A stretch of 57,210 bases of DNA, taken from assembly GCA_019322535.1 (NCBI GenBank), contig JAHWIM010000062.1:1-57210 (forward strand), in the 5' to 3' direction. Of this stretch, positions 26,838-47,127 are shown in pieces. Within the stretch, counting starts at the first letter, position 1, and each line of letters starts with the position of its first letter. A program made the translations under genes and the position numbers. Below the pieces are notes generated by a model. The model saw nothing but the letters and a program-made list of their open reading frames with translations, searched no databases and was not told the DNA's origin. The DNA is from Candidatus Woesearchaeota archaeon. GTDB lineage: Archaea; Nanobdellota; Nanobdellia; Woesearchaeales; WJKL01.

Positions 26838-27327
26838 AAAAAGAGGTAAACCTGTATTTAAGGATTTTTTAAGAGCTGAAAGTATAGACGAATTAGTCAG
26901 TTCTGAAGAAAGAGATTTATTTAGAACGCAAAGATTTCTTGGCAGACAAATGATTATGCATGAGATAGAACAGCTGCAAAAACAACAAAAAAAACCTGTT
27001 AAGAGAGGTAAACCTAACTATTCTTTACAAGGGCGAAAAGGAATTAACTATAAACCACTTAAATATAAGCCTATTATTTATATTCCTTTGAAAGCAAGAA
27101 ATATGTTTCGCACTAGTTATAGAAGAAGATTCAAAAAAGGTAAAATACGCAGAGGTGTGTACAGGGTTGCTGGGCTTGGACGTCGTAAGATGAGGAGAGA
27201 AAGAATCAACAGAGGTAGTAAGAAAGGATATCTTGAAGGCATTGTACAAAGAGATTCAAAAATTTTACCTATGCCTTACCAACCAGGAAGAGGATATGCA
27301 GGATACACAAATACAAAAGCTGCCTAA
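26824..27327 (+). CDS. Highly basic (K/R-rich) hypothetical protein
   Basis: 167-aa ORF overlapping the glyA end by 14 nt. It has R/K runs ([28 protein letters not shown]) and no hydrophobic segment. Confidence 0.45.
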
Positions 27328-28133
27328 GATTTTTCTAGATTTTTTATTACAAGAAGCAATGTTATTCTTCCCCAATTTATTAAGAGAATGAAGACTGCAA
27401 TTAAGAAAAGCAATAAGAGAAAGTTTGCTTCTAGTTGAGTTGAGATTGTATACAAAGCTAGAACAGGTAATCCTGTTGTGAGTATTAAAGCTGAGATTAA
27501 GATTTTTGCTTTTTTAATGCCTGTAAATAATGATTGTTTTATGATTTTTGGTATTTGTTTTAGTTCTTTTATTTTATGTATATAAGCAAATGAAATATAC
27601 ATGAAATACAAGAAGATTAAAGATATTATGAGATATACTGGAATTGCTATTTGTATTTGGTCAATGCTGAAGATGTATTTTGATGCAAAATTAATGATTG
27701 CAATTAATGGAATAATGAATATAAGGAATAAAATTCCAAACTTTAACTGATATTTTAAGAAAAGTGATTTTTGATTTAGAATAAAATTTGAGAGATTCCA
27801 GTTTATTCCATTTATTACAATGTATAGGGCAAACATTGTGACAACAAACAAGGTTACGTTTTTAAGTATTGATTTATAATGTGAATATTTTTCCATCATT
27901 GGGCCTAAAGAAGCTAATATCTCTTCATCTGACTCTGCTTCTGCTGAAATGTTTTCCATTGGTGCTAAGAATGCATTAATATCTTCTCCCATTGATATAG
28001 CAAAGTCCATAAATACAGCTGAAGATATGACTATTAAAATTGATTGCATTACAAATAAGACTAAGAAAATAAATTTATGTTTTTTTATTAATTTAATTGA
28101 CTGTTTTAAAGAAGTTTTTAGAGTGTTTAGCAT
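27324..28133 (-). CDS. Polytopic membrane protein E2 (paralog of 35279..36043), last gene of the surface operon
   Basis: 269 aa with a basic N-terminus, TM1, a ~45-aa acidic loop and several further hydrophobic helices. Its layout and several local motifs match E1. Confidence 0.75.
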   Translation of the reverse strand: MLNTLKTSLKQSIKLIKKHKFIFLVLFVMQSILIVISSAVFMDFAISMGEDINAFLAPMENISAEAESDEEILASLGPMMEKYSHYKSILKNVTLFVVTMFALYIVINGINWNLSNFILNQKSLFLKYQLKFGILFLIFIIPLIAIINFASKYIFSIDQIQIAIPVYLIISLIFLYFMYISFAYIHKIKELKQIPKIIKQSLFTGIKKAKILISALILTTGLPVLALYTISTQLEANFLLLLFLIAVFILLINWGRITLLLVIKNLEKS

Positions 28134-28139
28134 TTTATT

Positions 28140-31100
28140 CTAAATTACATCTGTTGATAATCTATCTGCAAGATCAGCTGAACTTATTGCTCTTGCATTT
28201 GCCATTCCTCCTTCAGGAGACACATAATATTGCCAAGCACTTTCTTCTATTTTTGTATAATCTACTCCTGCTGAAATTATGACTGTTCCAATATCATAAT
28301 TGTTTAACTTAGCTTCATCTGGTAGATTTTCTTTTGTAACAATAATTTTACCTTTTTCTTTTTCAGGCGGTGGATAACACTTCTTATCTTCCTTACAATA
28401 TTTCTTTGTGCAGTTGTCATCTAGTTTTCCATCCCAATCACAGTCACAATCTTTTAGATTTAGTTTATTTGGTGCAAAACATCTTGGATAAGTAAAGCAT
28501 TCGTCTTCATCACAGTAGAATTTAGTAGTAGCATCACAATCCTCTTCATCTATGTCTCCATCTCCGTCACAATCACATGGTGCTTCTAGATTTTTATATA
28601 AACCTCCTTGTCGGCAGGCTATATCTTCAGCTTTTGTCCATGGTTTTACTTTTAGTGTGATAGATTTTCTTTGTGGATTGTTTTGATAAGTAATAATATC
28701 TTGGCTTCTTGATTCTGAGCAGCTGCCTTGAGATCTGTTTCCAGGAGCATGTCTTAATTCAAGCTGTAATCTCCAATCTTCTGGTTTATCTGTTGATATA
28801 ATTCTTGGTTCTGTAATAGTAAATTTATATTCTCTACATGGTGTAATTTTTTCATCATTTATAGTACATGTTGATTTTTCTGGAACCATTGGTTGTTGTG
28901 TAAATTCAAAGATCATTCCTTGATTTCCTATTGGAACTGGCGCATTTTTCCCCCATGTCTGCCATTCTGTTGTTCCTTCATGTAAATATTTATCACCTTT
29001 TTGATCTGGTTTTTCTGAAGTATCTTGGACATATATTGAAACAGTTTCTCTATTTGTTACTGTGCCTTCTTGTATTAGTTTTGCATATGAGCCAGATGTA
29101 GGATCAACAGTCCATGTAGCTGGTGTTTTTGCAAAGTCTGATTTTGTTATTGTTCTTCCTCCTCCTAATACATCTAATTCATTCAGTCCTTGAACTAGGA
29201 TTGTTCTAGTTGGGTCATCTTCTGCTGGCTTTAAATCAATAAATCTTCCTTCTCTTTCTAACAGTTTTTCACCTTTCTTATTATAGAGCTGCATGAATAG
29301 ACATTGTTTTTGACCTTGGACAAACACTTCAAATGGATTTAACTTAATTGTATCTTCTACATAATAGACTTGTTCATCGCAATGAACATTATTACATTTT
29401 ACATTACCAAAATATGCTCTTCCTCTTAGATTCCAAAGCAGTCTTCCTTGGTCGCATCTGAAATAACCTTGAGTTTGGTCAAATCTGCAAGCAACAATAT
29501 CATAAGTTGTTGCATCTGAAATTGGAGCGTAGAAAACACCCATTCTTTTGCCAACTAAATGTCCTGGTGGAATACATTGCGATGCAACAGTTGGATTATT
29601 AATGTAAAGTGTAATTTTAACATTATCATATCTTTGAAGTCCTGTCTGCACTGTATGGACTGATCTTGATTCATAACTGCTTTGTTTTAATCCTCTTCCT
29701 GTGTATATAACTCTTGAAGGTCCTGGAGCTTCTTGATTAACTCTAGAAATGCCTACATATGCATCAGAAGTGCAGTCACATCCTGAAGGAGAGTTATCAT
29801 TTTCATCTGCATTTTGGCTTTTTGCTCGTTCACATGCTACTCCATCATAATTATAGAGTTCATAATCTGATACACAAGAAAGACTTACTGTATATCTATC
29901 TATATCGCAGCCAGGTGTTATCATCCAAGCTACTCTATATTCATATGTTGCTTCTTCAGTATCTGGATCCCAAGTCAAATATTCTCTATCTGCTGGCCAT
30001 GCATTTACAGAAGAATGCATTGGTTGTGAATATGCTGCATCAATAAATCCTTCTAAGTTAAACCCCCAATCTCCTGTTAATGCTCCTAAACAAACTTTTT
30101 CTGCAATTGCTCCTTCTCCTACCCCGATATAGTTACGCAAAGCAGCATTATTATAATCATCTAGCAGGGCGTCTGTTGCTTCTTGTACTCCTCCAAAGAT
30201 TGCATCTGCTCCTCCTCTTAATTTATTTCCTAGTTCTGGGCTTTTACCAGCTCCTGACCAAGGAGTACATCCATTTGTTAAACGAGTAATACCCCTATAA
30301 ATCCATTTACAGATATATTGCGTGAATACTTCTTTGCAAAAGCCTGTATCTGCCATTCCTGTTGTTTTAATTTGCTGCAGACAGTTGACTAATCCTGAAA
30401 TGAAATTTTTTGCTGCAACTAATCTATTTCTTATTTGAGGTACACAAACACATTGGAATGCTGGCCATGCGTCTCCTGTATTTAAATAAGGCTCATCTTT
30501 ATTCAGCCAGCTGTCTTGTCCAAAGCAAGCTGGTTTATCTCTTCCTTCATAATATTTATATGGATCATAATAATATCCTAATCTTTGGTATCTATAACTC
30601 CATCCTTTTTCATCAGTTGGTGGTTCTTTTATTGTACCTTGTCTATCAAGACAATAGCAGATAGGTCCTTCTTTTGGACAGTCTGCATCTTGCTGTAGTG
30701 CGCTAAACACTCTATCTGTTGTACCTTTTTTCTGCAATTCTTGTTTGAGTTCAAAAGAAGTTAGACATTTTCCATCTTGGTATTTCTTTTTTACGCAGAG
30801 GTCTTTGCATTTTTTAGTTTTCTCTTTTTTAAGGAATACATTTTTGCCTGATGTTGTTACTTTTAATGTTTCTGGTGTGTCTCCTGGTGGTATTGAACTA
30901 CTTACTCCTCCAACTCGTTTAAGAGTAGCATCGTCCCCTGCACCTGTATCATGAGCATAAACAGCTCCTTTATACACCCAGCACTCAGGATAAGGTCCTC
31001 CTTTAAATTTACAATTTTCTGCAGGAAATGATCTTAGTATTATTCCTTGTGTGCTTGTTATTTCACTGCAGCCAGCTGCTTTTTGAATTTTTAGTCTTAT

Positions 31101-33305
31101 TGTTTCAAAAGTTGCGTTCCCTGTCCATTCTGCAGGAGAACTTCTGCATAAGAACCTATCACAAATCCACCTATAAGAATTGTAGACACTTGCTTCTTTT
31201 TTCCACGCAGCGTATGTTTTTGGACATAGTGTGAATAAATTATATATTTCTGAGAGAGTATTTTCTTTTGTAAAATTAGTTGGTAAATCATTTTGTTTTA
31301 ATTCTTTTAATTGTTTTTCATATTTTTTCTTTAATGCATCTGTATTTTGTTGTTGAAGAAGACTTAGTATACCTGTTGGCATTTCTTTTTCAGCTACTTT
31401 TTCAAATCCTTCTTTTGCAATATCTTCTGCTTTTTCTTGGGTAATTTTTTTAATTTCTTCTTCAAATAATTTTTTAAAATCACTAGTTCCTACTTTTGGA
31501 CAAGGAGCTGGTTTTGTCATTGTTGCTCCTGGTGTTTTTGAAATAATTTGATCTTCAATGTGTTCAAAGTTAGCAACCCATCTTCTGTGGATTGTTGTTA
31601 TGAGTCTTACTCCAAACATTATTGCGCAAGCTCCTCCAATATATTTCATTACTTCATCAAGTGCTTCTATTGCTTTATCTAAGTTAGTTATTGTTTCATT
31701 TAGAAATTCTGCTCCATCATCTAAGAGCCAGTCAGGAAGAACATCTCTTGGATCTATTCTACTAGTGTCAACATGCATTGCAATATCCATACATTTTGTT
31801 TGGAAATCACGGATCTCTTCATACTTTCCTGTATTTGGATTTAGAATCTTATGAGTGTATTCAACTTTAACTTTTAAAGGAAATTTGAATTGTTTTGTAA
31901 GGTCTTCCCATAGATCATCTGAAAAATCATTTAGTCCTTCTAATTTTTTAAGATTATATCTGATGTACCATAGTGTTTTTGCATCATTTGGTTTTTTAAT
32001 TGTAGGAGAATGAGGTAAAATTTTGCAACTGTACTTATACAGGTTATCATCCTGCATTGATTCTGCTTCGCAGGCTCTTTCAAACCTTACATCTCTTATA
32101 ATAGGTTCTTTGCCTAATCCTTGATAACTTATATTTAATATAAAAGACATAATTTCTGTGCCTTCTTCTAATCTTTCAGGAGACATTGAAGTAGGAGATT
32201 GGTATTCAATCATATTTATTACATTCCAGCTAGCTTCTCCACTATAGCAAGTTCCAATTCTATAGTTTAAAGAAAGCTCTGTAGAAAGACCCATTCTGTC
32301 AATTGCAACTAAAACAAGATTTAGTGAAATTTCTTCTTGCGGTCTTTGCGGCTGAGGCAGTGCTTCTTCTAAACCTGGTGGAACTTGAGTTGGCTGCGTT
32401 CCTGTTCCGCCAACAGTTAAGAAACCAGGAATTATAGTTGTACCAACTAAATCAACATCATCTAATTTAAAATTGCCATTTTCATCTGCATTTGTTGAAG
32501 CTAATTTTTCTCTTTTTGTTGTTACATTTCCTGTTATTGGGTCTACTTCTCTTGTTTCAAGATATAATTCAATTTTAGCAAATGGCTCTGTAGCTCCTTC
32601 TATATCTGTTTGAGTGTCTGTTTCATAAAAGAAAGAACCGCTTGATGGAGTAAGGTTTTCTATTGTTGGAGGCTCTGTATCCAAATATGTTTTAGTTTTA
32701 AACTTATCTGTATTGTTTGCTTTATCTTTTGCAATTATTTCTATGAGGTTAATTCCTTCTGCTAATGCTATTGTTTGGTTAATAGAAGTAACATTTTCTG
32801 CAGAATAAACAGTGTTATTTTGATCAAGTATTATATCTAATTTAACTGCTTCTGAAACAGTTCCTCTAACCAGCCAAGTTGAGATGTTTGTCAGATCTGG
32901 AAATTTTGTTAAAATATTAAGTTCTGGCTTTGTTAAATCAACAACAACTGTGAATTCTTTAAAATTAATATTATCAGCAGGGTCTACTGATTCTAACTTA
33001 ATTGTATTTGCTGGAACTAATGAACTTAAATCAACAGAAGGAAAGTTAAATGTTCCTTGCATATTTGGAGTTGATTTTCTCTGCTTAACTCCATTAACAT
33101 AAAGATAGACTGTTGACATTGGTTCTGTTGTTCCTGTAATATCTAATCTGTTTGTTGTAACAAAATAAGGAATTGTTGCATTAATGAAAGGCGGTGTTTT
33201 GTCTTCTGCTGCTGTAGTTGTTACATTTGCATCTTGTGCAACTACTGCTAAAGGCAGCAATATAATCAATTCAATCATTAATACTGATATTAGTTGTTTT
33301 GACAT
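28140..33305 (-). CDS. Giant secreted protein B2 (1721 aa): Ig-like repeats, large Cys-rich region, acidic DxDxDG Cys repeats
   Basis: Signal peptide ...LPLAVVAQD. The N-terminal ~350 aa are Cys-free, full of N-x-S/T sequons, and have D-T-x-P-P domain boundaries. About 50 Cys follow (manual count). CDCDGDGDIDEEDCD and CDCDWDGKLDDNC lie near the C-terminus. Confidence 0.9.
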   Translation of the reverse strand: MSKQLISVLMIELIILLPLAVVAQDANVTTTAAEDKTPPFINATIPYFVTTNRLDITGTTEPMSTVYLYVNGVKQRKSTPNMQGTFNFPSVDLSSLVPANTIKLESVDPADNINFKEFTVVVDLTKPELNILTKFPDLTNISTWLVRGTVSEAVKLDIILDQNNTVYSAENVTSINQTIALAEGINLIEIIAKDKANNTDKFKTKTYLDTEPPTIENLTPSSGSFFYETDTQTDIEGATEPFAKIELYLETREVDPITGNVTTKREKLASTNADENGNFKLDDVDLVGTTIIPGFLTVGGTGTQPTQVPPGLEEALPQPQRPQEEISLNLVLVAIDRMGLSTELSLNYRIGTCYSGEASWNVINMIEYQSPTSMSPERLEEGTEIMSFILNISYQGLGKEPIIRDVRFERACEAESMQDDNLYKYSCKILPHSPTIKKPNDAKTLWYIRYNLKKLEGLNDFSDDLWEDLTKQFKFPLKVKVEYTHKILNPNTGKYEEIRDFQTKCMDIAMHVDTSRIDPRDVLPDWLLDDGAEFLNETITNLDKAIEALDEVMKYIGGACAIMFGVRLITTIHRRWVANFEHIEDQIISKTPGATMTKPAPCPKVGTSDFKKLFEEEIKKITQEKAEDIAKEGFEKVAEKEMPTGILSLLQQQNTDALKKKYEKQLKELKQNDLPTNFTKENTLSEIYNLFTLCPKTYAAWKKEASVYNSYRWICDRFLCRSSPAEWTGNATFETIRLKIQKAAGCSEITSTQGIILRSFPAENCKFKGGPYPECWVYKGAVYAHDTGAGDDATLKRVGGVSSSIPPGDTPETLKVTTSGKNVFLKKEKTKKCKDLCVKKKYQDGKCLTSFELKQELQKKGTTDRVFSALQQDADCPKEGPICYCLDRQGTIKEPPTDEKGWSYRYQRLGYYYDPYKYYEGRDKPACFGQDSWLNKDEPYLNTGDAWPAFQCVCVPQIRNRLVAAKNFISGLVNCLQQIKTTGMADTGFCKEVFTQYICKWIYRGITRLTNGCTPWSGAGKSPELGNKLRGGADAIFGGVQEATDALLDDYNNAALRNYIGVGEGAIAEKVCLGALTGDWGFNLEGFIDAAYSQPMHSSVNAWPADREYLTWDPDTEEATYEYRVAWMITPGCDIDRYTVSLSCVSDYELYNYDGVACERAKSQNADENDNSPSGCDCTSDAYVGISRVNQEAPGPSRVIYTGRGLKQSSYESRSVHTVQTGLQRYDNVKITLYINNPTVASQCIPPGHLVGKRMGVFYAPISDATTYDIVACRFDQTQGYFRCDQGRLLWNLRGRAYFGNVKCNNVHCDEQVYYVEDTIKLNPFEVFVQGQKQCLFMQLYNKKGEKLLEREGRFIDLKPAEDDPTRTILVQGLNELDVLGGGRTITKSDFAKTPATWTVDPTSGSYAKLIQEGTVTNRETVSIYVQDTSEKPDQKGDKYLHEGTTEWQTWGKNAPVPIGNQGMIFEFTQQPMVPEKSTCTINDEKITPCREYKFTITEPRIISTDKPEDWRLQLELRHAPGNRSQGSCSESRSQDIITYQNNPQRKSITLKVKPWTKAEDIACRQGGLYKNLEAPCDCDGDGDIDEEDCDATTKFYCDEDECFTYPRCFAPNKLNLKDCDCDWDGKLDDNCTKKYCKEDKKCYPPPEKEKGKIIVTKENLPDEAKLNNYDIGTVIISAGVDYTKIEESAWQYYVSPEGGMANARAISSADLADRLSTDVI

Positions 33306-33306
33306 T

Positions 33307-35211
33307 TTATGTTATTATTTCTGGTTCTGGTATACTATATTGTTGAGTAAGCTGGTCTAGTTTTGTAATTACTTCAATTGCTTGTTCTGGAGACCTTTCT
33401 GGGTCTATATATGGTCTTTCTAAAACATGGAATCTTATTTCTTTTGCATATTTTAGTTTTTCCCAGTCAGCAGTCCAATTGCCTTGATAACCTCCTCTTA
33501 TTGTTACATCGTCTGATAAATATATTGTAATATTATAATTGTAATTCCATTTTGCTAACAGTTTAAGTGTGCTTGGACTTTCTGCATCTGAATAATATGA
33601 TGCATCGCTTTCAAAATCTCCTCTTTTGATAGTTATTAAGGCACTATTTTCTTCATCTAGCTCTAATGGCTCTGCTGGAGAGAATTCATAATGCTTGACA
33701 ACAGTAACAGGTATTTCAATAACTGGAGTTAAATAGAGATCAACTGATTTTTCTGTATTTGTTGTTACAAACATTTCTCTTGACTCATATCCTGGTTTTT
33801 CTCCTCTTAAAACTCCATTTGCACATTGAGGAACTTGTTCTGAAACATATGAGACAGCTCCTCTGAACTGCCATTCTGACTGTCCGATAGGACATTTCAT
33901 TCTTATACATGTAAATGAAATATTTACTCCATCTATTTCTGTTGTTAAATCTCCTGCTTCTTGTGTTGATACATTTTCAAAAGTGTGAACAGTTAATCTG
34001 TTTGTTTCTGTTTCTCTGCAGTATTCTTCTTCTTTTGCAGTTGTTTCAAATGAAAATATTGCTGATGCAAAATTAGATTTATCAGGAGCATTGTGGTTTA
34101 TTGAAACATCAAATCCAATGTTAAATACATAATCATCATGTTTTCTAGTTGCATCATCTTTTAATGTTACAAGAACAGGGTATCTTACATCGTAAGTAAA
34201 GTGCCACAGTTGTACGCATAAGACATTTAAGAAATCCTGACCTCTATTTGCATTTGATTTTAAAGTTCTGCCTTCATTTGGTCTTATATATAATTCAAAA
34301 GGCCATGATTCATCATAGCTAAAGGATACATGTGTGTCTGCATATTTTTCTTCTGTTATTGGCCAGACATAATGATTTTGTTCATATGGATATTTTTTTG
34401 GAATTGGCTCATATTTTGTCCTATCAACTGCAATTCTTGGAAGGTTTATGTATAACAAATGTTTTAGTTTATTTTCTACATCTTTTATTTGCCATGTTTT
34501 TGACCTGCAGCTAAATGCCATATCTGTATAAGGGATATCATTATCCATCGCTATCAGGTCTATTGTTCTTCTTTCTATGAACTTTGTTCTTATTTCTTCT
34601 CTTATGATCTGAGTTGCAAGCTCATACATTTTTTTGATCCTGTATGGGATTTTAACTGAGAAGTCTTCTAAAAAGAATTTCTGCTCTCTTGCTTTTAGGA
34701 TTACATCTAAAGGATAATTTACATCTACTCTGAAATCTTCTTCTCCTAAATCTATATCAACTGAGATGTCTCCAAGTTCTGTTATGTTGAATGTTTTGTT
34801 GAAAGGCTCAAATCCTTGCAGGCAGATAGGAAGATTATCATGCACATATGTTTCTAATTCCAATATTACATAATTTAAAGGAGGTATTCTTGTTTGCCCT
34901 CTGTAGAACCATAAAACTGTTTTAACTGGAGATATAGGAAATGGCGGAAGATAAGCATTTGCTTCTGTTTCTATTTCATCTGGTATATCAATAAAACCAC
35001 CATTTGCTCCTAATATGTTTGCTCCATCTCTTGATATTGTTTCAACACAGTCTAGGATGAATTGATTTACTGGAACAATTTCTGGTGGAACAAGTACTGT
35101 TGGCTTGAAAACAGAAACTTCTTGCCTTAGAAAGAAGAATAAAGCTGCTGAAAGCAATAGAATTATTCCTAGAATGATGAATACAGTTATTTGTCCTCTT
35201 TTTTTAAACAT
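33307..35211 (-). CDS. Large protein A2 (634 aa) with a class III (type IV pilin-like) signal peptide; paralog of A1
   Basis: N-terminus MFKKRGQITVFIILGIILLLSAALFFF. Shared blocks with A1 include CVETISRDGANILGANGGFIDIP, VNYPLDVIL and YDVRYPVLVTLKD. The C-terminus looks like a beta-sandwich. Confidence 0.88.
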   Translation of the reverse strand: MFKKRGQITVFIILGIILLLSAALFFFLRQEVSVFKPTVLVPPEIVPVNQFILDCVETISRDGANILGANGGFIDIPDEIETEANAYLPPFPISPVKTVLWFYRGQTRIPPLNYVILELETYVHDNLPICLQGFEPFNKTFNITELGDISVDIDLGEEDFRVDVNYPLDVILKAREQKFFLEDFSVKIPYRIKKMYELATQIIREEIRTKFIERRTIDLIAMDNDIPYTDMAFSCRSKTWQIKDVENKLKHLLYINLPRIAVDRTKYEPIPKKYPYEQNHYVWPITEEKYADTHVSFSYDESWPFELYIRPNEGRTLKSNANRGQDFLNVLCVQLWHFTYDVRYPVLVTLKDDATRKHDDYVFNIGFDVSINHNAPDKSNFASAIFSFETTAKEEEYCRETETNRLTVHTFENVSTQEAGDLTTEIDGVNISFTCIRMKCPIGQSEWQFRGAVSYVSEQVPQCANGVLRGEKPGYESREMFVTTNTEKSVDLYLTPVIEIPVTVVKHYEFSPAEPLELDEENSALITIKRGDFESDASYYSDAESPSTLKLLAKWNYNYNITIYLSDDVTIRGGYQGNWTADWEKLKYAKEIRFHVLERPYIDPERSPEQAIEVITKLDQLTQQYSIPEPEIIT

Positions 35212-35236
35212 TTTAATTAAAGGTTTTTTAAAATTA

Positions 35237-35275
35237 TTTTTGTGTGAAGGTTATATGTGCTCGCTTCGCTCGCGG
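35237..35275. repeat. GC-rich intergenic repeat, copy 1 (tttttgtgtgaaggttatatgtgctcgcttcgctcgcgg)
   Basis: 33/39 positions are identical to 54383..54421. It lies in the only sizeable gap (67 nt) inside the giant operon. Confidence 0.8.
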
Positions 35276-35278
35276 TTT

Positions 35279-39000: not shown

Positions 39001-40304
39001 TTTTGAGCTTCTTCTAATTTAATTTTTGCTTTTGCAATTGCTATGTCATCTTTTGTTTTTGCTGTTTCTAAATCCTTTAAATTTTTTTGTGCTGTAGCAA
39101 CATTTTTTTGAGTAGGTGTGTAATCTTTCCATTTATCTGGAGGAATCTCTAAAGCCATGGCTACTGCAGCTTCTTCTTTAGAAATATCTAATTCTATAAA
39201 CCCCATATGTGTTTTAATCTCATCAGTAGTGGTTTTTGATGTTATACCTCTAGCTAATAATTCTTTTGCTGTTGCACCATCAGGAACACCAAGTCCTTTC
39301 CACATTTCTATTGCTTGAGGTGTATATCCTTCCCATGGGTCTGCTGCTGGAGCTGCTTCGGCTGCTTTACGACGGGCAATTTCTATTTTAGCAGCTTTTA
39401 TTTGTTCGGCTGTTCCTTTTACAACTAGTTCCTCTAATTGTTCTTTAGACATTTTTTCAATTTCAGTTGTTGGGGTTGCTGTTGCTGTGCCTGGGCTTGT
39501 TCCTGTGCCTGGAGGTACTGTTGGTGTTGTTGTTGGTGCTGAAATAGCTTGTTCCACCCTCGCAGAATCTGTTTCTACCCATTTCCCACTTGCTATATCA
39601 TATACTGAATGTTTAGACAGATCTGTTCTTCTAGCAAACAATAATCCATCAGACCCTATTCTATATTCCCAACCTGTTCCAATCTCACCATACTCTGCTG
39701 CTTGGTCTGGTGGAATAGTGACCCAATCATTTTCTCCTCCTTTATTTTTAACTTCTACATACAACAGCGATTTTTGTGGATTTTGAATATTTCCTTCTCT
39801 ATAATAATCGCCTCCTTCCCATTGATTAAATATTTGATCCCTTGTATATTCCTTATCGACAACATTATATAGAATTATAGGACCTATAGTTGGACCTGCA
39901 TCTTCATATCTAATTTTATCTGTTCTTGTCTCTCTATCTGGCTGGATAACATATACATCAGAATCATATTCTATTGTTGATATTGGAAAATCTTTAATAT
40001 CATTCCAACCTTCTCCTCTTCGTACAGTTGGATCATTTGAACCATCTGCAAACACATAAGTTACTCCTGAAGAAGAACCTGGTTCATTTGGAACAAAAAC
40101 AAATACTGAATCTGTCCCTCCATCATCTGTTTGAAGAATAAGTGAATTCTTTAATTGTTCATCAGTAACTCCTAATACTTTAATATTTTCAAATGATTTA
40201 TCTAATTCAAGATCCTCTAAATCAGTCAAAGCACTAACACTGCTTAATAAAATAACAAATAGAATCATCCAAATTTTTACAAATTTTGTATTTCTTAAAT
40301 TCAT
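36033..40304 (-). CDS. Secreted fibrous protein D (1423 aa): globular ends, T/P linker, long Ala/Lys/Glu coiled-coil stalk, acidic tail
   Basis: Signal peptide ...LLSSVSALTD. PTTTPTVPPGTGTSPGTATATPTT linker. A stretch of roughly 250 aa with heptad-like A/K/E-rich sequence (AAAAAKKAEEAAAAKKAEEEAAARAAA). C-terminal SSGGGGTGDEDDDITINDI. Confidence 0.88.
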   Translation of the reverse strand: MNLRNTKFVKIWMILFVILLSSVSALTDLEDLELDKSFENIKVLGVTDEQLKNSLILQTDDGGTDSVFVFVPNEPGSSSGVTYVFADGSNDPTVRRGEGWNDIKDFPISTIEYDSDVYVIQPDRETRTDKIRYEDAGPTIGPIILYNVVDKEYTRDQIFNQWEGGDYYREGNIQNPQKSLLYVEVKNKGGENDWVTIPPDQAAEYGEIGTGWEYRIGSDGLLFARRTDLSKHSVYDIASGKWVETDSARVEQAISAPTTTPTVPPGTGTSPGTATATPTTEIEKMSKEQLEELVVKGTAEQIKAAKIEIARRKAAEAAPAADPWEGYTPQAIEMWKGLGVPDGATAKELLARGITSKTTTDEIKTHMGFIELDISKEEAAVAMALEIPPDKWKDYTPTQKNVATAQKNLKDLETAKTKDDIAIAKAKIKLEEAQKVQEAEAAAAAAKKAEEAAAAKKAEEEAAARAAATETVQNLVKAKLISEELAKELTDPEAEVIQKAQTAVQTAKENLEKVEGETNIAALEADLKFEQSMLIAEEKLVNTPDVTEKDVEDRRKKVEDLKAKIKAEQEKVNTAKQSLASAQTAQAGVIDTFRLKKIDDYDEGIEAVLLKPERMDEVVQLYSKDTGTNIDKLREDIAAETNPTRKKILEDIKTQLQGIAVAETDGYVYKGEGLYVKKGQETGPTYAYNKDTKKWAQTTDPKTTTEAVGGAQGKMLEFYNKDHEDDQLTFKNGKFFDKNNYVVTLSRDGTTVTERKPLETLTTEKGTFTLQKDLQYDGIAVYADKDGKLYDSATQTLITGNIVKTTTTGSMIFKETTETKAGKRAKEVSKTSVSILTKDEEGKLEEREIIKDVTAEALRDIKAELARHKAEDIDEGTTSIKVGDQTFDAVTVDGKPIIGVREYDDEKNKINYEVVATNLITNPLDPEGEPTFGRVVTRGQDAKGAVISVGGQNREYVHWYIGKDGETHWLSSEIIEEYSKTLKAKGIIVKTELLDTTDSQLRPSAREGVGWKDATFKDWAIDPVTGQKYAFVSNYKDGRINSYAFIDPRVSDLLKSEDNPEGIIQLDSEGRIKNRDEILEKLQGEMGEMPGRPDYTYGAALEAEFPGDEKAQAEAWAKLSEYDRAVIRANEYEPTLTADERNQIQQIMDSGEADIVKTGKINDIISAASGRADEPEEILDEVESRARSEIRAVNFATMEKYLTEFQGLSYYSPHLFGEEETDAWKHAADQLFDNVVFGGTDYWASLICHHDFENDVGDESLYYVTPEGQIVELAHIEGERSSAITLPNGSIEYFYKITFFAKATYEDNEFNVYLTSDDYKDQEIYSENIELEGYASGDGEAFYGSGANAIVQYSTKEYLQACIRFKHGLQVGMAWRSGARKPKNELCNSIVEADDSYDNYLSSGSSGGGGTGDEDDDITINDI
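38905..38990 (-). repeat. Short imperfect tandem duplication (GCT-rich) encoding the AAAAKKAEE repeats of protein D
   Basis: tcttctgctttttttgctgctgctgc occurs twice back to back on the plus strand. Confidence 0.7.
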
Positions 40305-40305
40305 T

Positions 40306-40926: not shown

Positions 40927-40927
40927 T

Positions 40928-41608
40928 TTATTTTACAGTAAATTTAATTTCTCCCACATACTTGTTTGATGGTCTAAATTGATCAGTAACTGTTATCCTA
41001 TAAGTATAGGTTCCATGTTTTCTTAATGCAGCTGTATTGACTCCGCATTCTATTGGTATTGTGAAAACGTCTTGACCTGTTACTGTTCTTGTTGTTGAAA
41101 AGCTGTTTACTTTAGTGACTCCTGGTACTAATTTTCCATCTGGTTCAAATAGTTCATGGACTTCATCACAACCAATTTTATATTCTCCATTCATAACAAT
41201 TGGTATCATATCAACTACTACATGATGTAATGTAACAATTTCTCCTTTTTTGTAAACTGAACTTTTTCTTTCTCTGCATTTATTATAATCATCACTTACA
41301 TAACTTGCTAATACTAAATCCTTAATAGCAATTGTTTTATCTGGTTTTTCAGGAGGATCTTCAACTCTTTGTTCTAACCTTCTATAATGTGCTATATCTA
41401 ACAAAACTAATTCATCCATTGCTCTTTTTTTATTTTTTTCAGAAACAACTAACCTTTTTTCTAAATCTCCTTTTTCTTCAGATAATATTGCTGCTCTCTG
41501 AATCTGAGGCCTAACAACACCAAAATAATACCCTAAAAAAGATGTAACTGCAACAGCTGCAACTGTACAAGCTCCAATTACAAGGTATTTTATTTTTGTG
41601 CTTATCAT
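40928..41608 (-). CDS. Single-pass membrane protein C1 (tandem paralog of C2)
   Basis: 226 aa with an N-terminal TM. VHELFEPDGKLVPGVTKVNSFSTTRTVT...GVNTAAL...YRITVTDQF. Confidence 0.85.
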   Translation of the reverse strand: MISTKIKYLVIGACTVAAVAVTSFLGYYFGVVRPQIQRAAILSEEKGDLEKRLVVSEKNKKRAMDELVLLDIAHYRRLEQRVEDPPEKPDKTIAIKDLVLASYVSDDYNKCRERKSSVYKKGEIVTLHHVVVDMIPIVMNGEYKIGCDEVHELFEPDGKLVPGVTKVNSFSTTRTVTGQDVFTIPIECGVNTAALRKHGTYTYRITVTDQFRPSNKYVGEIKFTVK

Positions 41609-44600
41609 TCTTCTTCTACAGCAAGGGCTGTTTCCGCTTTTTTAGTGAAAAGTCCTTCGTCTTCTATTTTGAAGCAAGGATCGCTTGTTAATTCCCATGC
41701 ATCTTCTGCTGTTAATGCTTCTATATTAGCCATTATATCTCCTATTGCTGATAAAACTTTGATGAACATACAGAATTTATGTCCTCCAGGGAGTTCATGC
41801 CAGCATAGACTATAACATCCATAAGCAAGGCCCATTCCTATTAAAGCAAGTGGATCACTTAGTGCAGCCCGCCATAAACTAAGGACATAATTCCAAAATG
41901 CAAACAATGGAATAATATTAAATATAGCTCCCCAAAAATATTTGCACACCCTATAATCTTTTATTTCAGTGCATAGATTAGATGAAAATCCTGATTTGTA
42001 AGCATTAAATAAACAAGAGATATATTCACAATGTATTGCTCTATATTTATGTAAATTATAGACTATACCTGGAAGACAAAGTGTTGCCAGGCTTAATAAA
42101 AAATTATCTTTAACATTCATATAGCCCCCTGAAGTGCTTACTGCTCTGCTGTAATCTTCTGTTCCTTGGAATCCACCTAAAGCTGATTTTCCAAGATATG
42201 TAGGAGCATTTCTGTTTATCCAAGCAGCTCCACCACCTCCACCACCAGCAGCATTCCAATATTCTAAACCTTTTACTGTTTTTCCTTCTGGAAGTGGTGC
42301 GTGTTTGCAGTTAATAAATGCGCAATATTTGTCAGCATATTTACCAAATTTATCAGCAGCTGCTTTTGCTCCTTCTTCTGTAGTACAGGCTGTTCTTCTT
42401 CCTGCTTTAAGAGGTTCGCTTGCTTGAGGAACTGCTTTTGTTGCTAATTCTGCATCGCCAAAAATATTTTTAATCAGATCCCAAACCATTACTATTTGCC
42501 TGTAGGTGTAATACATCTTGCAAAGCATATCACTCCATTCAAAGATTCTTTGAAGCCAGCCAATTACTTGCCAGAAACCATTATCAATCCATTCATCATA
42601 CAGATCATCTATTTTATCTCTCTGGTTCTCAGTTACTTCTCCGATAGGAGCATCATACATACTAACAACAAGATCTATTGTCTCTTTCTCATAATTCATC
42701 AAAAATTTTTTTCTATAAGTAGAAAGCAAGTTGAAAGTGCAGTTTATAGTTAGATTTTCTAGTTTTGCTGCATCAAATGGTTTTAAATGAGTACCAATAA
42801 AGAATTCTTTACTTCCTCTTTCATTATTAAAGATAAAAAGATCATTTAAATAACCAATATCACCGCTGCAGTCTGCTAAGTCTACTGAAACTAATTGAGC
42901 ACCAGTTGATGTTCTTAATTTAAGATGGAAATACATCTGATGGTTGATTAAAGCTGTTGTGGATCTGTCAAGAGCTAATGGCATTGTACTAACTAAACTT
43001 CCTCTCCAATAATCTGGATTTTCTTCATAGCTTTTTGCAAAAACCTCAAACACCTGTTTAACTGTTTGATTATTTCCAGAAGAGTCAACAAAAGTAAAAG
43101 CAACATCTTCTCTTAGATAACCAGAACCAATAGGACCAACTGCCCATGTGCAGTTCCAATTTGTATTGTCTATTGTTGTGCAACTGCCTGGTGTTTCTTC
43201 ATAACCAAATGAACCCATTATTCTTGAGAAATCAGCAAATGCCTTAATTTCACTCTGGTCTTGAACTTGTACACTTACTACCATGTCATCTCCTGAAGAC
43301 AGTACTTTTGTTGGAATTTCTGTAATAGGTGTTATGTCTGCATAGTATTTTCTTCCTCGCGGCACTGTTTCATATCCTGTTACTGCAAGGATTTGCTCTT
43401 CTGAAAGTTCTTGCGCTTCTGGTGCTTTTCTGTCAATATATACTGAACCTTGTTTAACTCCTGTTGCTTCATTTCCAGCATCATCATACATTTTTATTAT
43501 GTAGAAATTCCCTCTTGTGCTGTGGGTTTTGCTGCTTTTAACATCATTCCATATACATTCCCAATTTGCACCAATTTTTTCACATCTATTTGCCTGGAAA
43601 TATTGGCCTGCATATGCCGCATCAACTTCTGACAAATCAATTAATGCTTGTCTTCCTTCCATGCCTGCTCCTGCATCTAAAATTGTTGCAACAATATCTT
43701 TTGGCATATCTCCAAGATAGCTTATAGCATTCCACGGATTTCTTGTTGCAACAGAAAGTATTTCTGGAGCTGTTGTGTCAACTGTAAATGATACAACAAC
43801 AGTTGCTTCTTGCACATTTCCAAAATCATCTCTTGCTGTGATTTTTATGTTATAGGTTCCTGTTGCCATTGCAAACTGCAGAGCTGGCCAAGTACAAGTA
43901 TATTCAACACCAGTTCTTGTACAAACAACAGCTGGAACAGATTCACCTTCTCCGAATTGTGAAAAGTCAGCAAAAATATTCTTAGCTTGAAGGCCTGTAT
44001 CTTCTAAGACTTTAATCTGGGCATTCACTGCAAAAGTACCTTCAGGAATATATTGCTGAAGCTGGACTCCTTGACTTATCATTTTAAATGAGTCTGTTTG
44101 TATTGCTGGAGGTGATACATCAAGTTCAAATCGAGGACTTGATCGTGAAGTAAGATGATCCATTTTATCATATGCTTTTATAATGAGATTTCCTGTGGTT
44201 GGAAGTGGAACAATTGTTGTAGTTGAATAGATACAGCCAGGAGCTGTGATATTTTGTTCATATAACATAACACTATTATCCCAGAATTCAACCCTTCTTA
44301 AACCAGAGCAGACAGAAAAATCATCTTCTTTCCATGCTCTGTCTTTCAAAGTATATGCAACAGAAACTATTGATCCATTTTGCGCTGGAAGCCTGTCAAA
44401 TTCAATAACAGGAGCAAGATTATCTAAAGTCATATTAATATTTTCAGACTGCAATAAGGTATTATCGTCTGAAAACAAAGAAACTGTTGATGGATAAGTA
44501 CCTCCTGCTAAGCTATAATATGCTGATTCAAAATTGCATGTATAACTTCCTGGTGTTATTTCTGTACAGTCTTGCATAGGAAAATCATTAACTTTAATTT

Positions 44601-44811
44601 GGTCTGGTGTTATTTCTGAATCACCATCTACAGAAGCAAGTGTTTCTAATGACCAACTGTCATAGCTGTCAAAAAAACCATTAATTCCTGCGTCACCACT
44701 ATGCTTTGTAACTGTTAATTGTGTCTGGGCAAATGCATTTGAAATATAGAAAGGCAAAGTTAGGATTATAATAATCATAAACATGGATTTTGCGTATAAG
44801 CTTTTTTTCAT
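41605..44811 (-). CDS. Giant secreted protein B1 (1068 aa): Ig-like repeats plus a Cys-rich hydrophobic C-terminal region; distant paralog of B2
   Basis: Signal peptide ...YISNAFAQT. Repeated D-x-x-x-P domain boundaries (DNLAPV, DVSPPA, DTTAPE, DRKAPE). The C-terminal motif CLPGIVYNL...CTEIKDYRVCKYFWGAI parallels CVPQIRNRL...CKEVFTQYICKWIYRGI in B2. Confidence 0.9.
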   Translation of the reverse strand: MKKSLYAKSMFMIIIILTLPFYISNAFAQTQLTVTKHSGDAGINGFFDSYDSWSLETLASVDGDSEITPDQIKVNDFPMQDCTEITPGSYTCNFESAYYSLAGGTYPSTVSLFSDDNTLLQSENINMTLDNLAPVIEFDRLPAQNGSIVSVAYTLKDRAWKEDDFSVCSGLRRVEFWDNSVMLYEQNITAPGCIYSTTTIVPLPTTGNLIIKAYDKMDHLTSRSSPRFELDVSPPAIQTDSFKMISQGVQLQQYIPEGTFAVNAQIKVLEDTGLQAKNIFADFSQFGEGESVPAVVCTRTGVEYTCTWPALQFAMATGTYNIKITARDDFGNVQEATVVVSFTVDTTAPEILSVATRNPWNAISYLGDMPKDIVATILDAGAGMEGRQALIDLSEVDAAYAGQYFQANRCEKIGANWECIWNDVKSSKTHSTRGNFYIIKMYDDAGNEATGVKQGSVYIDRKAPEAQELSEEQILAVTGYETVPRGRKYYADITPITEIPTKVLSSGDDMVVSVQVQDQSEIKAFADFSRIMGSFGYEETPGSCTTIDNTNWNCTWAVGPIGSGYLREDVAFTFVDSSGNNQTVKQVFEVFAKSYEENPDYWRGSLVSTMPLALDRSTTALINHQMYFHLKLRTSTGAQLVSVDLADCSGDIGYLNDLFIFNNERGSKEFFIGTHLKPFDAAKLENLTINCTFNLLSTYRKKFLMNYEKETIDLVVSMYDAPIGEVTENQRDKIDDLYDEWIDNGFWQVIGWLQRIFEWSDMLCKMYYTYRQIVMVWDLIKNIFGDAELATKAVPQASEPLKAGRRTACTTEEGAKAAADKFGKYADKYCAFINCKHAPLPEGKTVKGLEYWNAAGGGGGGAAWINRNAPTYLGKSALGGFQGTEDYSRAVSTSGGYMNVKDNFLLSLATLCLPGIVYNLHKYRAIHCEYISCLFNAYKSGFSSNLCTEIKDYRVCKYFWGAIFNIIPLFAFWNYVLSLWRAALSDPLALIGMGLAYGCYSLCWHELPGGHKFCMFIKVLSAIGDIMANIEALTAEDAWELTSDPCFKIEDEGLFTKKAETALAVEEE

Positions 44812-46955
44812 TTTGCTGCTATATATCTTGGTTCTAATTTTGGTCTGAATTGAGATGAAAGTTTTTCTAATATATTTTGGTTAAAAATATGCTCTATTTT
44901 TTCAGGAAGAGGTGTGTCTACAATGAAGAATGTTAAATTATTATCTTTGTATAAATTATTAGGAGAGATTATCAGATATCCTGTTTGATTATTAAAAATT
45001 GCTCCTCCTTTAAAATAATCATCATCAAATTTTACTTCTGGAATTGTATATTCTTCTTCAAAAGGCCATGAACCTTCTTCTCTTTTATCTTCTGGTATTA
45101 TAACAGGTTGATGATAGAACATGCTCATCTCTACTTCATATGTTCCTGGAACTAGTCTTAAACTAGATGTTGTATTTGTTACTTTTGCTATAGCTGTGAA
45201 TGGATCTTCTCCAACAAAATCATTTTGTCTTGATAATGACAAGACAACTTCCTCATCTGCACCAAGAGGAACAGCTTGTGTTGTAGGTTTTCCACCATCT
45301 TGCACTTTCTCTGTAGATAAAGAAGAAGTTAGATATTTCAAAACTCTAACCTCTTTGTCAATATAAGGATATACTCTTACTGTTGGAAATTCAATTGTAT
45401 CATTAAAGTCTACTGATAAATATAAAGTAGGCATATAGTAGTCAATATGATCTAAAACTAATAAACCACCAAAACAGAGAGGAAATCTTGAAATTAATGT
45501 TCCATTTTCATCAGTAGCTCCTATCTGGCAGCCTTGATCACCGCACTGAAATCCTACAGAAACTCCTTGTATTGGCTCATCTGTGGATTCATCAACTACT
45601 TTGATTGTTACATTTCCACTATTTCTTTGATTTTCATTGCATAAAAGAGATGATTGAAATTCTGGAACTGGCTCAAATCCCTGAAAGCTTTCATCTATAA
45701 ATTCATTATTTCTAAAGTTAGATTCTAGAGCAAATCTAAATGTATATCCTTCTTCTCTAAGAGCAGCTGGGTCTCTAATTTCAACAACAACAGGGTAGCT
45801 TAAGTCATAAACATTATTATACTTTGTTGAACCTAATGAAAATAATTCTGCAAGATCATTGAGCAAAGATTGTCCTTTTATTATTTCTCCTTTGCTATTT
45901 ATGTCAAAATATATCGGCCACCAAGCTAGATAATTGAATGTAACTGCTAGATCAGAATAAGGCTGTGAGTCTCTGCTTAAATTTATAGGAAGCTCAACTG
46001 ATTCATAAAGTGCTGCTTGTAGTGGATCTGGAAAATTTCTTTTTACAAAATTCAGAGTATCATAAACTTGAAAAGCAGGAACATATATCATTAATATTTC
46101 TTCAATTTTTTCTTTAACTTTTGTTCTTAACCATATGACACTTGGATCTGTGCCAAATTCTGTATGTGAGAATGGAGGCAGTCTGTTTGGATCAAGACCT
46201 GAATAAGCATCTATTAAATCAAGAGCTTGTTTTTCAAAAACTTTGTATTCTATCTGAATGTTTGTTATACCTGTTGCTAAATCATAAATTCTTCTCATAT
46301 TTACAGGAATAGAACCATAAAAATTATCTACTCTGTGAGTTTTGTCTGCTAATTCAACTTTGAGTGGATAATTTAAGAACAAAGCAACATTAGATGATGT
46401 TACTCTTGTTATAGATTTAAATTCACCAGTAGGTGTTATTTCATAGCCTTGTACTTTAAATGCATTATAGTTGTTTAAACAAGAACCTATTTCTTCTTCA
46501 ATATATCTGTCAACTTGAGCTTCGATTGAACGATCACCTGGGGTAATTCTGTATAAAGGAGGTCTTAAGGAACTAAACAAACAATTTCCTCTGCAGTCAT
46601 TTGGTGCTTTTAAATACCACCAATATGGAACATAAAGTCCTGAGTTTGGTGCAAATTCTAAAGCGTCTGCTTCTGTTGGATTTTGAGATGAAACAGAGAT
46701 TCCAAAATCTTCAAAATAAATATAACCTCCTCCTTCTCCTAATAGTTTAAGTCCTTCTGTGCCAACTTTTTCAAGACATTCTTGCGTAAATTGTCTTATT
46801 GGCTCAAATTCAATAGGAATACTTACAACAGCAGGAATTTCTTCTATTATTGCTCTCTTAACAACCCTTGATCTTATGAAAAAAAAGGTAAATACTGCAA
46901 ATAAAATTATTACTCCTAAGATTATGAAAAGCGTTATTTGTCCCCTTTTTTTCAA
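44808..46955 (-). CDS. Large protein A1 (715 aa) with a class III (type IV pilin-like) signal peptide; first gene of the operon
   Basis: TTG start at 46955 with a GAGGGG SD 7 nt upstream. N-terminus (M)KKRGQITLFIILGVIILFAVFTFFF. Paralogous blocks shared with A2. A CarboxypepD_reg-like segment (VTIKVVDESTDEPIQGVSV...TDENGTL). Confidence 0.88.
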   Translation of the reverse strand: MKKRGQITLFIILGVIILFAVFTFFFIRSRVVKRAIIEEIPAVVSIPIEFEPIRQFTQECLEKVGTEGLKLLGEGGGYIYFEDFGISVSSQNPTEADALEFAPNSGLYVPYWWYLKAPNDCRGNCLFSSLRPPLYRITPGDRSIEAQVDRYIEEEIGSCLNNYNAFKVQGYEITPTGEFKSITRVTSSNVALFLNYPLKVELADKTHRVDNFYGSIPVNMRRIYDLATGITNIQIEYKVFEKQALDLIDAYSGLDPNRLPPFSHTEFGTDPSVIWLRTKVKEKIEEILMIYVPAFQVYDTLNFVKRNFPDPLQAALYESVELPINLSRDSQPYSDLAVTFNYLAWWPIYFDINSKGEIIKGQSLLNDLAELFSLGSTKYNNVYDLSYPVVVEIRDPAALREEGYTFRFALESNFRNNEFIDESFQGFEPVPEFQSSLLCNENQRNSGNVTIKVVDESTDEPIQGVSVGFQCGDQGCQIGATDENGTLISRFPLCFGGLLVLDHIDYYMPTLYLSVDFNDTIEFPTVRVYPYIDKEVRVLKYLTSSLSTEKVQDGGKPTTQAVPLGADEEVVLSLSRQNDFVGEDPFTAIAKVTNTTSSLRLVPGTYEVEMSMFYHQPVIIPEDKREEGSWPFEEEYTIPEVKFDDDYFKGGAIFNNQTGYLIISPNNLYKDNNLTFFIVDTPLPEKIEHIFNQNILEKLSSQFRPKLEPRYIAAK

Positions 46956-47025
46956 TATATTCCCCTCGACACTGTATTATCCTAATTTATAAACCCAATA
47001 TATAAAAAGCTTTTGGTAAGACGCC

Positions 47026-47047
47026 CTCTAAACTGGAATTTTTAGAG
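47026..47047. promoter_or_regulatory. Inverted repeat CTCTAAA-n8-TTTAGAG in the divergent control region of the operon
   Basis: Perfect 7-bp arms located between the minus-strand TATA-like boxes (about 46989-47007) and the plus-strand TATA box at 47098. Confidence 0.3.
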
Positions 47048-47097
47048 TTTCAGGGCTTTAAGGCCTATTTTCATTTCTTGAAAATGATAGGAAAACC

Positions 47098-47105
47098 TTT
47101 TAAAC
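47098..47105 (+). promoter_or_regulatory. TATA box (TTTTAAAC) for 47128..48255
   Basis: 23 nt from 47105 to the ATG at 47128. Confidence 0.45.
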
Positions 47106-47127
47106 TTAAAGTTTTTATGAAGCAGTA

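Follow-up and report, generated by a model that had tools for sequence, protein, structure and literature searches.

A conserved array of orphan exported protein families in Woesearchaeota and its possible role as a cell-surface contact complex

Woesearchaeota and related archaea rank among the most widespread archaea that have not been cultivated; an attached life on other cells is presumed for them, and to our knowledge no molecular basis has been described for their surface architecture or host contact. Hamm et al. reportedly described in 2019 the SPEARE proteins, giant surface proteins of Nanohaloarchaeota for which a part in host contact was proposed. Within the DPANN archaea (Diapherotrites, Parvarchaeota, Aenigmarchaeota, Nanoarchaeota, Nanohaloarchaeota), Castelle et al. 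(2021) described giant proteins with murein-transglycosylase domains in Pacearchaeota and Woesearchaeota, and noted that the majority of families specific to DPANN have no annotation and are predicted to lie in the membrane or outside the cell (PMC8204110). Near archaeal pilus loci, large proteins with class III signals are considered candidate adhesins or minor pilins (PMC4858521; 10.64898/2026.04.22.720090). Further points of comparison are the two-component S-layers of Sulfolobales, made of SlaA and SlaB, and the sortase-assembled pili of Gram-positive bacteria. Here we analysed the 57,210-nt contig JAHWIM010000062.1 (hereafter the window), the one contig examined of the metagenome-assembled genome (MAG) of a Candidatus Woesearchaeota archaeon, and we describe an array of nine genes on its minus strand that encodes, in two paralogous sets, four conserved kinds of exported or membrane proteins, called A, B, D and E. 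The reading that we favour, while stopping a little short of calling it probable, is that the locus encodes a stand-alone, ATPase-less, membrane-anchored surface contact complex, which would belong to the vertically inherited core of Woesearchaeota and Nanoarchaeota and be made of paralogous sets of these four parts. The general kind of locus, an archaeal surface cluster with a pilin-type signal and immunoglobulin (Ig)-like and CnaB modules, is known, whereas neither the core domains of this array nor its multi-gene architecture is, and our literature searches found no description of this A-B-D-E cluster.

Nine minus-strand open reading frames (ORFs) run head to tail over ~19.6-20 kb, and their coordinates are exactly those of the preliminary description. 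From A1 onwards the genes are A1 (44808..46955, 715 aa, TTG start), B1 (41605..44811, 1068 aa), C1 (40928..41608, 226 aa), C2 (40306..40926, 206 aa), D (36033..40304, 1423 aa), E1 (35279..36043, 254 aa), A2 (33307..35211, 634 aa), B2 (28140..33305, 1721 aa) and E2 (27324..28133, 269 aa). The junctions were likewise recovered, namely 4-nt overlaps at 44808-44811 (A1/B1) and 41605-41608 (B1/C1), 1-nt gaps at 40927, 40305 and 33306, an 11-nt overlap at 36033-36043 (D/E1), a 6-nt gap at 28134-28139 (B2/E2) and a 67-nt gap at 35212-35278 (E1/A2). The last of these is an AT-rich spacer between the first set (A1 to E1) and the second set (A2 to E2), and it may hold an internal promoter. Upstream of A1 lies a divergent intergenic region (46956..47127), shared with the plus-strand gene U375 (47128..48255, 375 aa). 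It contains a TATA-like TTTTTATATATT ~42-53 nt upstream of the TTG start of A1 and a GAGGGG ~5-11 nt upstream of it, elements that would form a candidate promoter. A scan for transmembrane (TM) segments found one N-terminal hydrophobic segment in each of the A, B, C and D proteins and 5-6 TM-like segments in E1 and E2, supporting the earlier view that all nine products are secreted or membrane-bound.

The proposal that one module occurs twice was examined by pairwise and profile comparisons. A1 and A2 are paralogues (BLASTP E 2e-35, 25% identity over ~627 columns), and their alignment spans the NYPL.V.L and YD..YPV.V blocks from which the kinship had first been claimed. In BLASTP, B1 and B2 gave a marginal match over the Cys motif quoted for them (E 0.043) and E1 and E2 no significant one (E 0.32). 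When we compared both pairs with hhalign, using family profiles built from relatives' genomes, the Cys-motif kinship was confirmed (residues 903-972 of B1 against 945-1019 of B2, probability 95.7%, E 1e-8), and so was that of E1 and E2 (96.7%, E 4e-10, 163 columns); the common Ig-like N-terminal regions of B1 and B2 were supported at the weaker probability of 76.6%. C1 and C2 are tandem paralogues (54% identity, BLASTP E 2e-47). The A-B-E module is therefore present twice, as the preliminary description had it, and the first copy does also carry C1, C2 and D. What did not hold is the treatment of D as a mere extra of the first copy: C1 and C2 are lineage-specific and sit in a variable slot, whereas D is a conserved core member, and the repeat unit is better given as A-B-(D domain)-E. 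P0104, encoded elsewhere in this MAG, is a third and distant paralogue of A, and at other loci (L002, L066, L076, L080 and others) a third set is found in rearranged form, B-x-E-A beside U375.

We then surveyed family A by a profile scan in one genome per species, which gave at least 389 confirmed family-A places. The loci from relatives carry L-numbers as labels (L002, L050, L081 and so on), and their ORFs were assigned to families with jackhmmer, a separate D-domain profile being used for D. A1 itself is identical to the protein with locus tag KY331_05150 of a Candidatus Woesearchaeota MAG. Among the best 80 of the at least 389 loci, for which titles were judged, the titles named Woesearchaeota, Nanoarchaeota, Nanoarchaeia or 'Methanosarcinales', and the last label is probably wrong on array-bearing contigs. 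Third-party annotation (TPA) contigs titled 'uncultured Methanosarcinales archaeon' that bear the array include L005, L008-L011, L019, L028 and others; the L028 contig is 969 kb long, which is typical of an entire DPANN genome.

The gene order is widely conserved. B lies directly 3' of A in 59 of 70 loci, and the counts for A-B loci with enough flank were 28 of 31 with D, 22 of 30 with E and 11 of 19 with a second A. In 20 of 50 loci, U375 stands no more than 4 kb upstream of A, mostly in divergent orientation. The general order is a divergent 375-aa Cys-rich membrane protein followed by A-B-(variable small genes)-D-E-A-B-E. A full array is seen in the distant contigs L083 and L084 (A717-B1093-two small inserts-D1350-E238-A659-B2192-E271) and in L090 (DegT-like, DUF7560, methionyl-tRNA synthetase (MetRS), Fic, U375(-), A711, B1024, D738, E250, A632, B1787+). 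In addition, A2-type orthologues stand downstream of E in many loci, and E2 orthologues come after B2 in L083/L084 and L087. The A-B-E arrangement, which the preliminary description had left to be sought in related genomes, thus recurs in dozens of them, and since the same gene order is kept in dozens of other genomes, the array is not due to chance. Family A is not confined to the array: solitary family-A genes, ~27-31% identical to A1, occur in L088 (10001-12130) and L089 (10001-12253) in unrelated housekeeping contexts, with no B, D or E.

These comparisons bear directly on an explanation without any system, in which hypothetical ORFs that are unrelated or spurious would stand in a row by chance, or the array would be a mobile insertion of recent date. 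Lack of annotation is all that favours it. Each family has many homologues, and synteny refutes it, the order being conserved across deeply divergent genomes; moreover, the GC content of the array (0.31-0.36) is the same as that of the flanks, and a Pfam scan found no mobile-element genes within the array. We regard this explanation as practically negligible. A mobile-element or viral origin was also considered and rejected, composition, gene content and the conserved housekeeping neighbourhood all standing against it. MetRS is a recurrent housekeeping neighbour of the A-B cluster, which indicates that the cluster belongs to the vertically inherited core genome and is not a mobile island. A gene of ~700 aa upstream of A in many loci, tried as a candidate secretion ATPase, turned out to be MetRS.

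When we scanned the nine proteins against Pfam and NCBIfam, nothing exceeded the curated cut-offs. None of the nine contains a Walker A motif and none matched an S-layer family in these scans, in agreement with the earlier statement that no ATPase or known S-layer motif is recognisable among the products. Archaellum and pilus-machinery domains were not found in the nine proteins with either database, nor a lytic transglycosylase domain with Pfam; for cohesin and dockerin there was no Pfam match in the nine proteins, only two DCD.DG motifs in B2. No significant match came from sequence and profile searches of the PDB with A, B1, the B C-terminal domain, D, the D domain, B2, E and U375. The search for characterised systems covered Pfam, NCBIfam, PDB sequences and Foldseek, and the confident profile matches to such systems that would have undone the preliminary description did not appear in any of them. 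The array resembles SPEARE and the other DPANN giants in having large extracellular proteins of reduced-genome archaea for which host contact is proposed. However, each of the giants is the product of one very large gene and is defined by enzyme or adhesion domains that can be recognised, whereas the array distributes orphan domains over a conserved multi-gene set, the distinction from SPEARE being drawn from its description.

A1 consists of a class III-type signal and anchor, an orphan α/β head (~48-430, ~390 aa) and C-terminal β-sandwiches of the CnaB and carboxypeptidase-regulatory-like kind (~445-715). Its residues 1-27 (MKKRG/QITLFIILG..., the slash marking the putative cleavage point; 46875..46955, minus strand) hold a class III (prepilin-type) signal-like sequence with a FlaFind-type motif and a hydrophobic helix. 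The consensus of the family-A N-terminus is [KR][GA]/Q[IV][TS]xF[IM][IV]xG followed by a hydrophobic helix, with Q(+1) conserved in 100%, F(+5) in 96% and G(+9) in 86%. The FlaFind class III rule fits A1, A2 and 76 of the 99 family-A members, and almost never B, D, E or U375, so that the pilin-like N-terminus ascribed to A1 and A2 is borne out. The AlphaFold2 (AF2) model of A1, based on a 69-sequence alignment, has a predicted local distance difference test (pLDDT) score of 89.7 and shows a helix at residues 2-36, a flexible linker, the α/β head and the C-terminal β-sandwiches. At residues 33-37, between the N-terminal helix and the independent head, the pLDDT of the linker is below 50. In this model, the N-terminal helix looks more like an anchor than like a polymerising pilin. 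When we searched the model with Foldseek against the PDB and the viral BFVD, only the β-sandwiches matched (whole-query TM-score 0.11-0.17), and what they matched were the CnaB domains found in pilus adhesins of Gram-positive bacteria as well as domains of the carboxypeptidase-regulatory-like kind. The ~390-aa head was unmatched among the listed Foldseek matches (PDB, BFVD), and neither the PilY/DUF2341 domain nor any Pfam family matches it; likewise, none of the 107 A1 homologues has a Pfam domain.

The likeness of the locus to archaeal type IV pili (T4P) and other type IV filaments (TFF) lies in this class III signal motif and hydrophobic helix on a large extracellular A protein with adhesin-type β-sandwiches. 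It invites an explanation in which A would act as a minor pilin of large size or as an adhesin of the tip, processed by a prepilin peptidase and built into the tip or base of a pilus by a type IV pilus ATPase and platform encoded elsewhere in the genome, with B, D and E as accessory proteins. The conservation of the motif in family A and the resemblance of the A stalk to pilus adhesin domains agree with it, as does the common view of large class III-signal proteins near T4P loci as adhesins or minor pilins (PMC4858521; 10.64898/2026.04.22.720090). However, no T2SSE/FlaI-like ATPase, T2SSF/TadC/FlaJ platform, prepilin peptidase or small major pilin was found in the window or among the Pfam-labelled neighbours sampled at seven other loci, and the partners B, D and E are not known from TFF loci. 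In the TFF pilin fold a long α1 packs into the head, whereas the helix of the A1 model is set apart from its head by the low-confidence linker, and neither a GxGD nor an Asp motif is seen in E. Surface proteins other than pilins can have class III signals as well, for example the sugar-binding proteins of the Sulfolobus bindosome. We therefore regard a pilus-associated role as distinctly unlikely.

The likeness to the adhesins and pilins of Gram-positive sortase pili (SpaC, BcpA, GBS52, SpaA) is that the C-terminal β-sandwiches of A superpose on CnaB-type domains. Against the CnaB2 domain 8bdw, Foldseek gave a TM-score of 0.65-0.69, normalised to the target, over ~95 aa; the whole-chain E-values of A1 were 1e-7 to 1e-3, those for SpaC, BcpA, GBS52 and SpaA being 1e-6 to 1e-3. 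The likeness is limited to a generic stalk module (query TM-score 0.11-0.16), and here we deal with an archaeon whose A protein has its anchor at the N-terminus instead of the C-terminus. A C-terminal LPXTG motif is absent from all nine proteins (the lone LPTTG is internal in B1, at residue 203), and Pfam detected no sortase in the window.

B1 has a Sec-type signal and an arm of about five β-sandwich modules of the Ig-like kind, and it ends in an all-helical domain rich in Cys. The Ig-like modules give weak Pfam matches to Big_13 and Big_3_3, and a D...P boundary motif recurs every ~100-115 aa (D130/P134, D231/P235, D345/P349, D460/P464). The AF2 model of B1, made from 7 sequences only (5 close B1 homologues and 2 found via profile search), likewise shows β-sandwich and then helices; its Foldseek search returned Ig-like matches only and is uninformative for the helical part. 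The Cys-rich helical domain (~715-1068; 41608..42669, minus strand) carries the motif C.PGI.YNL.K.R.I.C.Y..CL.....G.....C....Y..CKY, has 10 invariant Cys across 57 family members and has no PDB or Pfam relative. Its profile retrieves 1,282 representative clusters (E<=1e-3), which are unannotated, and in the full-length matches the domain is always C-terminal, in proteins of ~1,000-1,350 aa. After the Cys motif, B1 has moderately, borderline hydrophobic helices.

B2, with 52 Cys, has a Sec signal, Ig/fn3-like N-terminal modules, the B-type Cys motif and a long Cys-rich C-terminal extension. The core of its Cys motif (residues 945-1019; 30249..30473, minus strand) is the part homologous to B1 in both hhalign and BLASTP, and the two Asp-rich DCD.DG motifs lie at residues 1578 and 1621 in the extension. 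In addition, residues 1054-1144 weakly resemble the D domain (hhalign 28% probability). B2 may combine B and D-like parts, which would account for the second set having no separate D.

The properties of B bear on an explanation in which B would use its Cys-rich and partly hydrophobic helical domain to insert into or remodel the envelope of a partner, and occasional fused peptidase domains would digest the host wall, with nutrient transfer or a cytoplasmic bridge as the outcome. DPANN cells form intimate host contacts, and the moderately hydrophobic helices after the B1 Cys motif would suit such a role. So would the B2 orthologue on the distant Joint Genome Institute (JGI) contig L083 (11977-18555), which ends in a Trypsin_2 domain (residues 1986-2161, E 1.5e-10), and the D orthologue of the same contig (5220-9272), which has a marginal Peptidase_M15_3 match (23.3 bits against a cut-off of 23.2). 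These enzyme fusions are sporadic, however, and the window's proteins do not have them; the hydrophobic helices, judged from the translation, are not conserved in B2. Similarity to archaeal fusexins (Fsx1/HAP2-like) was limited to the generic Ig-like sandwich of 7p4l (E ~4e-3, query TM-score 0.14), matched by the low-confidence B1 model, and no C-terminal TM segment accompanies it. A breaching or bridging of the host envelope is thus very unlikely in our view.

A composition scan of D showed a signal or anchor, a β-rich domain, a Thr/Pro linker, an Ala/Glu/Lys-rich helical spacer, a mixed β region and a conserved C-terminal domain. Members of the family range from 332 to 1455 aa, some being cut at locus ends, and conservation is limited to the C-terminal ~250 aa. 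The D-type C-terminal domain (~1150-1420; 36045..36857, minus strand) was matched with jackhmmer and hmmsearch in 37 D-slot proteins. It has no Pfam or PDB relative, and a member-by-member Pfam scan of 26 D-domain sequences found no recurring family. Within the spacer, repeat and composition scans identified a 27-bp tandem repeat of 2.8 copies (38913..38992) that encodes an AAAAKKAEE low-complexity helix. A natural B-D fusion was found in L081 (181-4302), where a 1373-aa member of the B family has a D-type domain at its C-terminus (1130-1364). The match to the D domain has an E-value of 7.5e-12 against the B-family set; against all locus ORFs it is 2.3e-10. Such a fusion is an argument for a physical cooperation between B and the D domain.

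The pairing of B and D recalls the S-layers of SlaA and SlaB, in which a large exported protein with many β-sandwiches similarly stands beside a membrane-anchored protein with a long helical spacer. As in SlaA and SlaB, both B and D appear to be glycoproteins and to be co-transcribed, as predicted here from the genes. The hydrophobic segment of D is N-terminal, whereas that of SlaB is C-terminal. Based on this likeness, the array could be an S-layer-like envelope scaffold with a structural role, in which B would form a canopy, D a stalk that fixes its distance, and A and E the anchor or assembly partners. Ig-like domains in series make up many S-layer proteins of archaea, and both the Ig-module array of B and the variable-length helical spacer of D fit such a scaffold. 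N-glycosylation sequons are present in the array proteins and glycan-synthesis genes adjoin the array; the cluster is near-universal in the lineage, its housekeeping neighbourhood is stable, and A is as conserved as MetRS. On the other side, S-layer loci have no counterpart of A, of E or of the set duplication, and two to three paralogous sets per genome together with a polytopic E are atypical of them. The Pfam and NCBIfam scans of the nine proteins gave no sequence or profile similarity to S-layer families, no PGF-CTERM or PEF motif, archaeosortase match or C-terminal TM segment was found in the nine proteins, and the C-terminal helices of B are borderline hydrophobic only. Taken as a whole account of the locus, a scaffold of this kind seems to us unlikely.

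Both E proteins have a polytopic layout, E1 with 5-6 TM-like segments and E2 with 6, and the E family was found in 39 loci. Neither protein has a Pfam, NCBIfam or PDB relative, and no Pfam family recurs in the 40 E-family members scanned one by one. Candidate identities as prepilin peptidase, archaeosortase or another membrane protease were tried and rejected; there were no family matches, and no conserved Asp/GxGD, Cys or His was present. As regards prepilin peptidases in particular, the 40 members gave no A24 match in Pfam and share no conserved GxGD/Asp pair, despite a similar size and polytopic layout.

The remaining proteins of the first set, C1 and C2, occupy a variable slot in which other genomes have unrelated small genes. 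C1 is a small TM-anchored protein with a β-rich C-terminal domain. The possibility that C1 and C2 belong to the conserved core was rejected, because neither had a homologue among 39 slot ORFs of other loci. A profile comparison showed weak similarity (46%) of C1 and C2 to the TM-plus-β-sandwich part of U375. The variable slot of L083 holds a nucleotidyltransferase (NTP_transf_2) and a 150-aa gene, a pair that, as a guess, might be toxin-antitoxin-like.

U375 is a conserved partner of the array that lies outside the coordinates of the preliminary description. Its family was detected in 33 loci with jackhmmer and in 31 with single-pass phmmer. The protein has a cytoplasmic N-terminus of ~60 aa and one TM segment (64-82); its extracellular part comprises a β-rich domain, and a region with 16 Cys is also present. 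Residues 1-60 (RLIDYVKKELAAGY...AADVDAAI), which precede the TM helix, have no family match, and residues 217-241 show a weak match to the Dicty_CTDC Cys repeat, as does the L090 orthologue.

Taken together, the tightly packed and co-oriented genes, the ancient duplication into cognate sets, the export or membrane signals common to all products, the adhesin-type modules, the disulfide-rich domains, the B-D fusion and the stable location point to an extracytoplasmic, energy-independent, multi-protein surface assembly, and on this basis we favour a surface contact complex. In such a complex, A would be exported via its class III signal, probably be cleaved at G/Q and stay tethered by its N-terminal hydrophobic helix, displaying the orphan globular head on a stalk of CnaB-like β-sandwiches. 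B would be exported by the Sec route, extend as an arm of Ig-like modules and dock via its disulfide-locked helical domain. The D-type domain would be the physical partner of B, and the variable helical and linker region of D a spacer that sets the projection distance of the assembly. The small polytopic E could be the membrane base of each set, which is a guess. U375 and the proteins of the variable slot, here C1 and C2, may be accessory TM-anchored β-sandwich proteins. The two sets of the operon and the third elsewhere in the genome would then give related but distinct complexes. Their most likely role would be contact, by which the tiny cell would adhere to a host cell, a surface or a glycan.

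Several observations weigh against the contact complex, and it should be read with them in mind. First, its support comes from sequences and models, and the modelled N-terminal helix of A1 does not itself prove cleavage. Second, Ig and β-sandwich modules of adhesin-like appearance are generic and are also found in S-layer proteins, enzymes and phage fibres. Third, the AF2 confidence for the helical domain of B is low (pLDDT 40-65 in the 7-sequence model, 57 overall). Fourth, the solitary A genes of L088 and L089, which have no B beside them, mean that A is not strictly dependent on its partners. Finally, deep comparisons show A to be conserved to the same degree as MetRS (median identity 32% for A and 34% for MetRS), which argues against a fast-adapting host-specific adhesin and fits a structural role. 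As a separate data point, the close relative L050 (Woesearchaeota Yap200.bin9.104) is discordant with the window: its MetRS is 77% identical, whereas A1 is 31%, B1 25%, E1 29% and A2 41% identical. This single case suggests rapid divergence or paralogue exchange in the first set at short range. The preliminary description had seen in the locus a surface structure or adhesion apparatus; its surface part is supported, whereas attachment remains an inference, and a structural role in the envelope fits about equally well.

A run of hypothetical proteins thereby becomes a defined, conserved and testable system with four core families, a fixed order, a stable position and targeting signals. One of the core families alone comprises more than 1,000 sequence clusters, one component has a confident structural model, and the array flags at least four domains that are missing from protein-family databases. 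In the boldest form of the reading, the A-B-D-E sets together with U375 would be an unrecognised multi-subunit machine of Woesearchaeota and Nanoarchaeota, with at least four orphan domains, serving host attachment and perhaps exchange, and would represent a new class of contact apparatus unrelated to pili, S-layers and known adhesins; this we hold to be possible, though rather doubtful. Whether the array is a host-contact device or an envelope scaffold, it would, if either is true, fill a long-standing gap in DPANN cell biology.

Beyond A1, the flank of the array holds U375, glycan-synthesis enzymes and MetRS. The MetRS gene of the window (50714-52198, minus strand) encodes 494 aa without the C-terminal tRNA-binding domain that is found in the 690-750-aa MetRS of many relatives, and the trio of DegT-like protein, DUF7560 and MetRS (50714-54314) recurs in L002 and L090. 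No tRNA and no Rfam match were found in the window. The other flank (12607-27327, plus strand) is a purine and folate biosynthesis operon unrelated to the array. Its last gene (26824-27327, plus strand) encodes 167 aa without a Pfam match and converges with E2, the two genes overlapping by 4 nt at their stop codons, so that there is no intergenic room for a terminator. The operon looks complete for de novo synthesis in a DPANN genome and has unusual fusions, namely GATase+PRTase+GARS at 16358-19027 (889 aa) and SAICAR synthetase+AIR carboxylase at 22936-24447. In addition, purH is seemingly split into two ORFs, at 19578-20294 and 20291-21445, that overlap by 4 nt.

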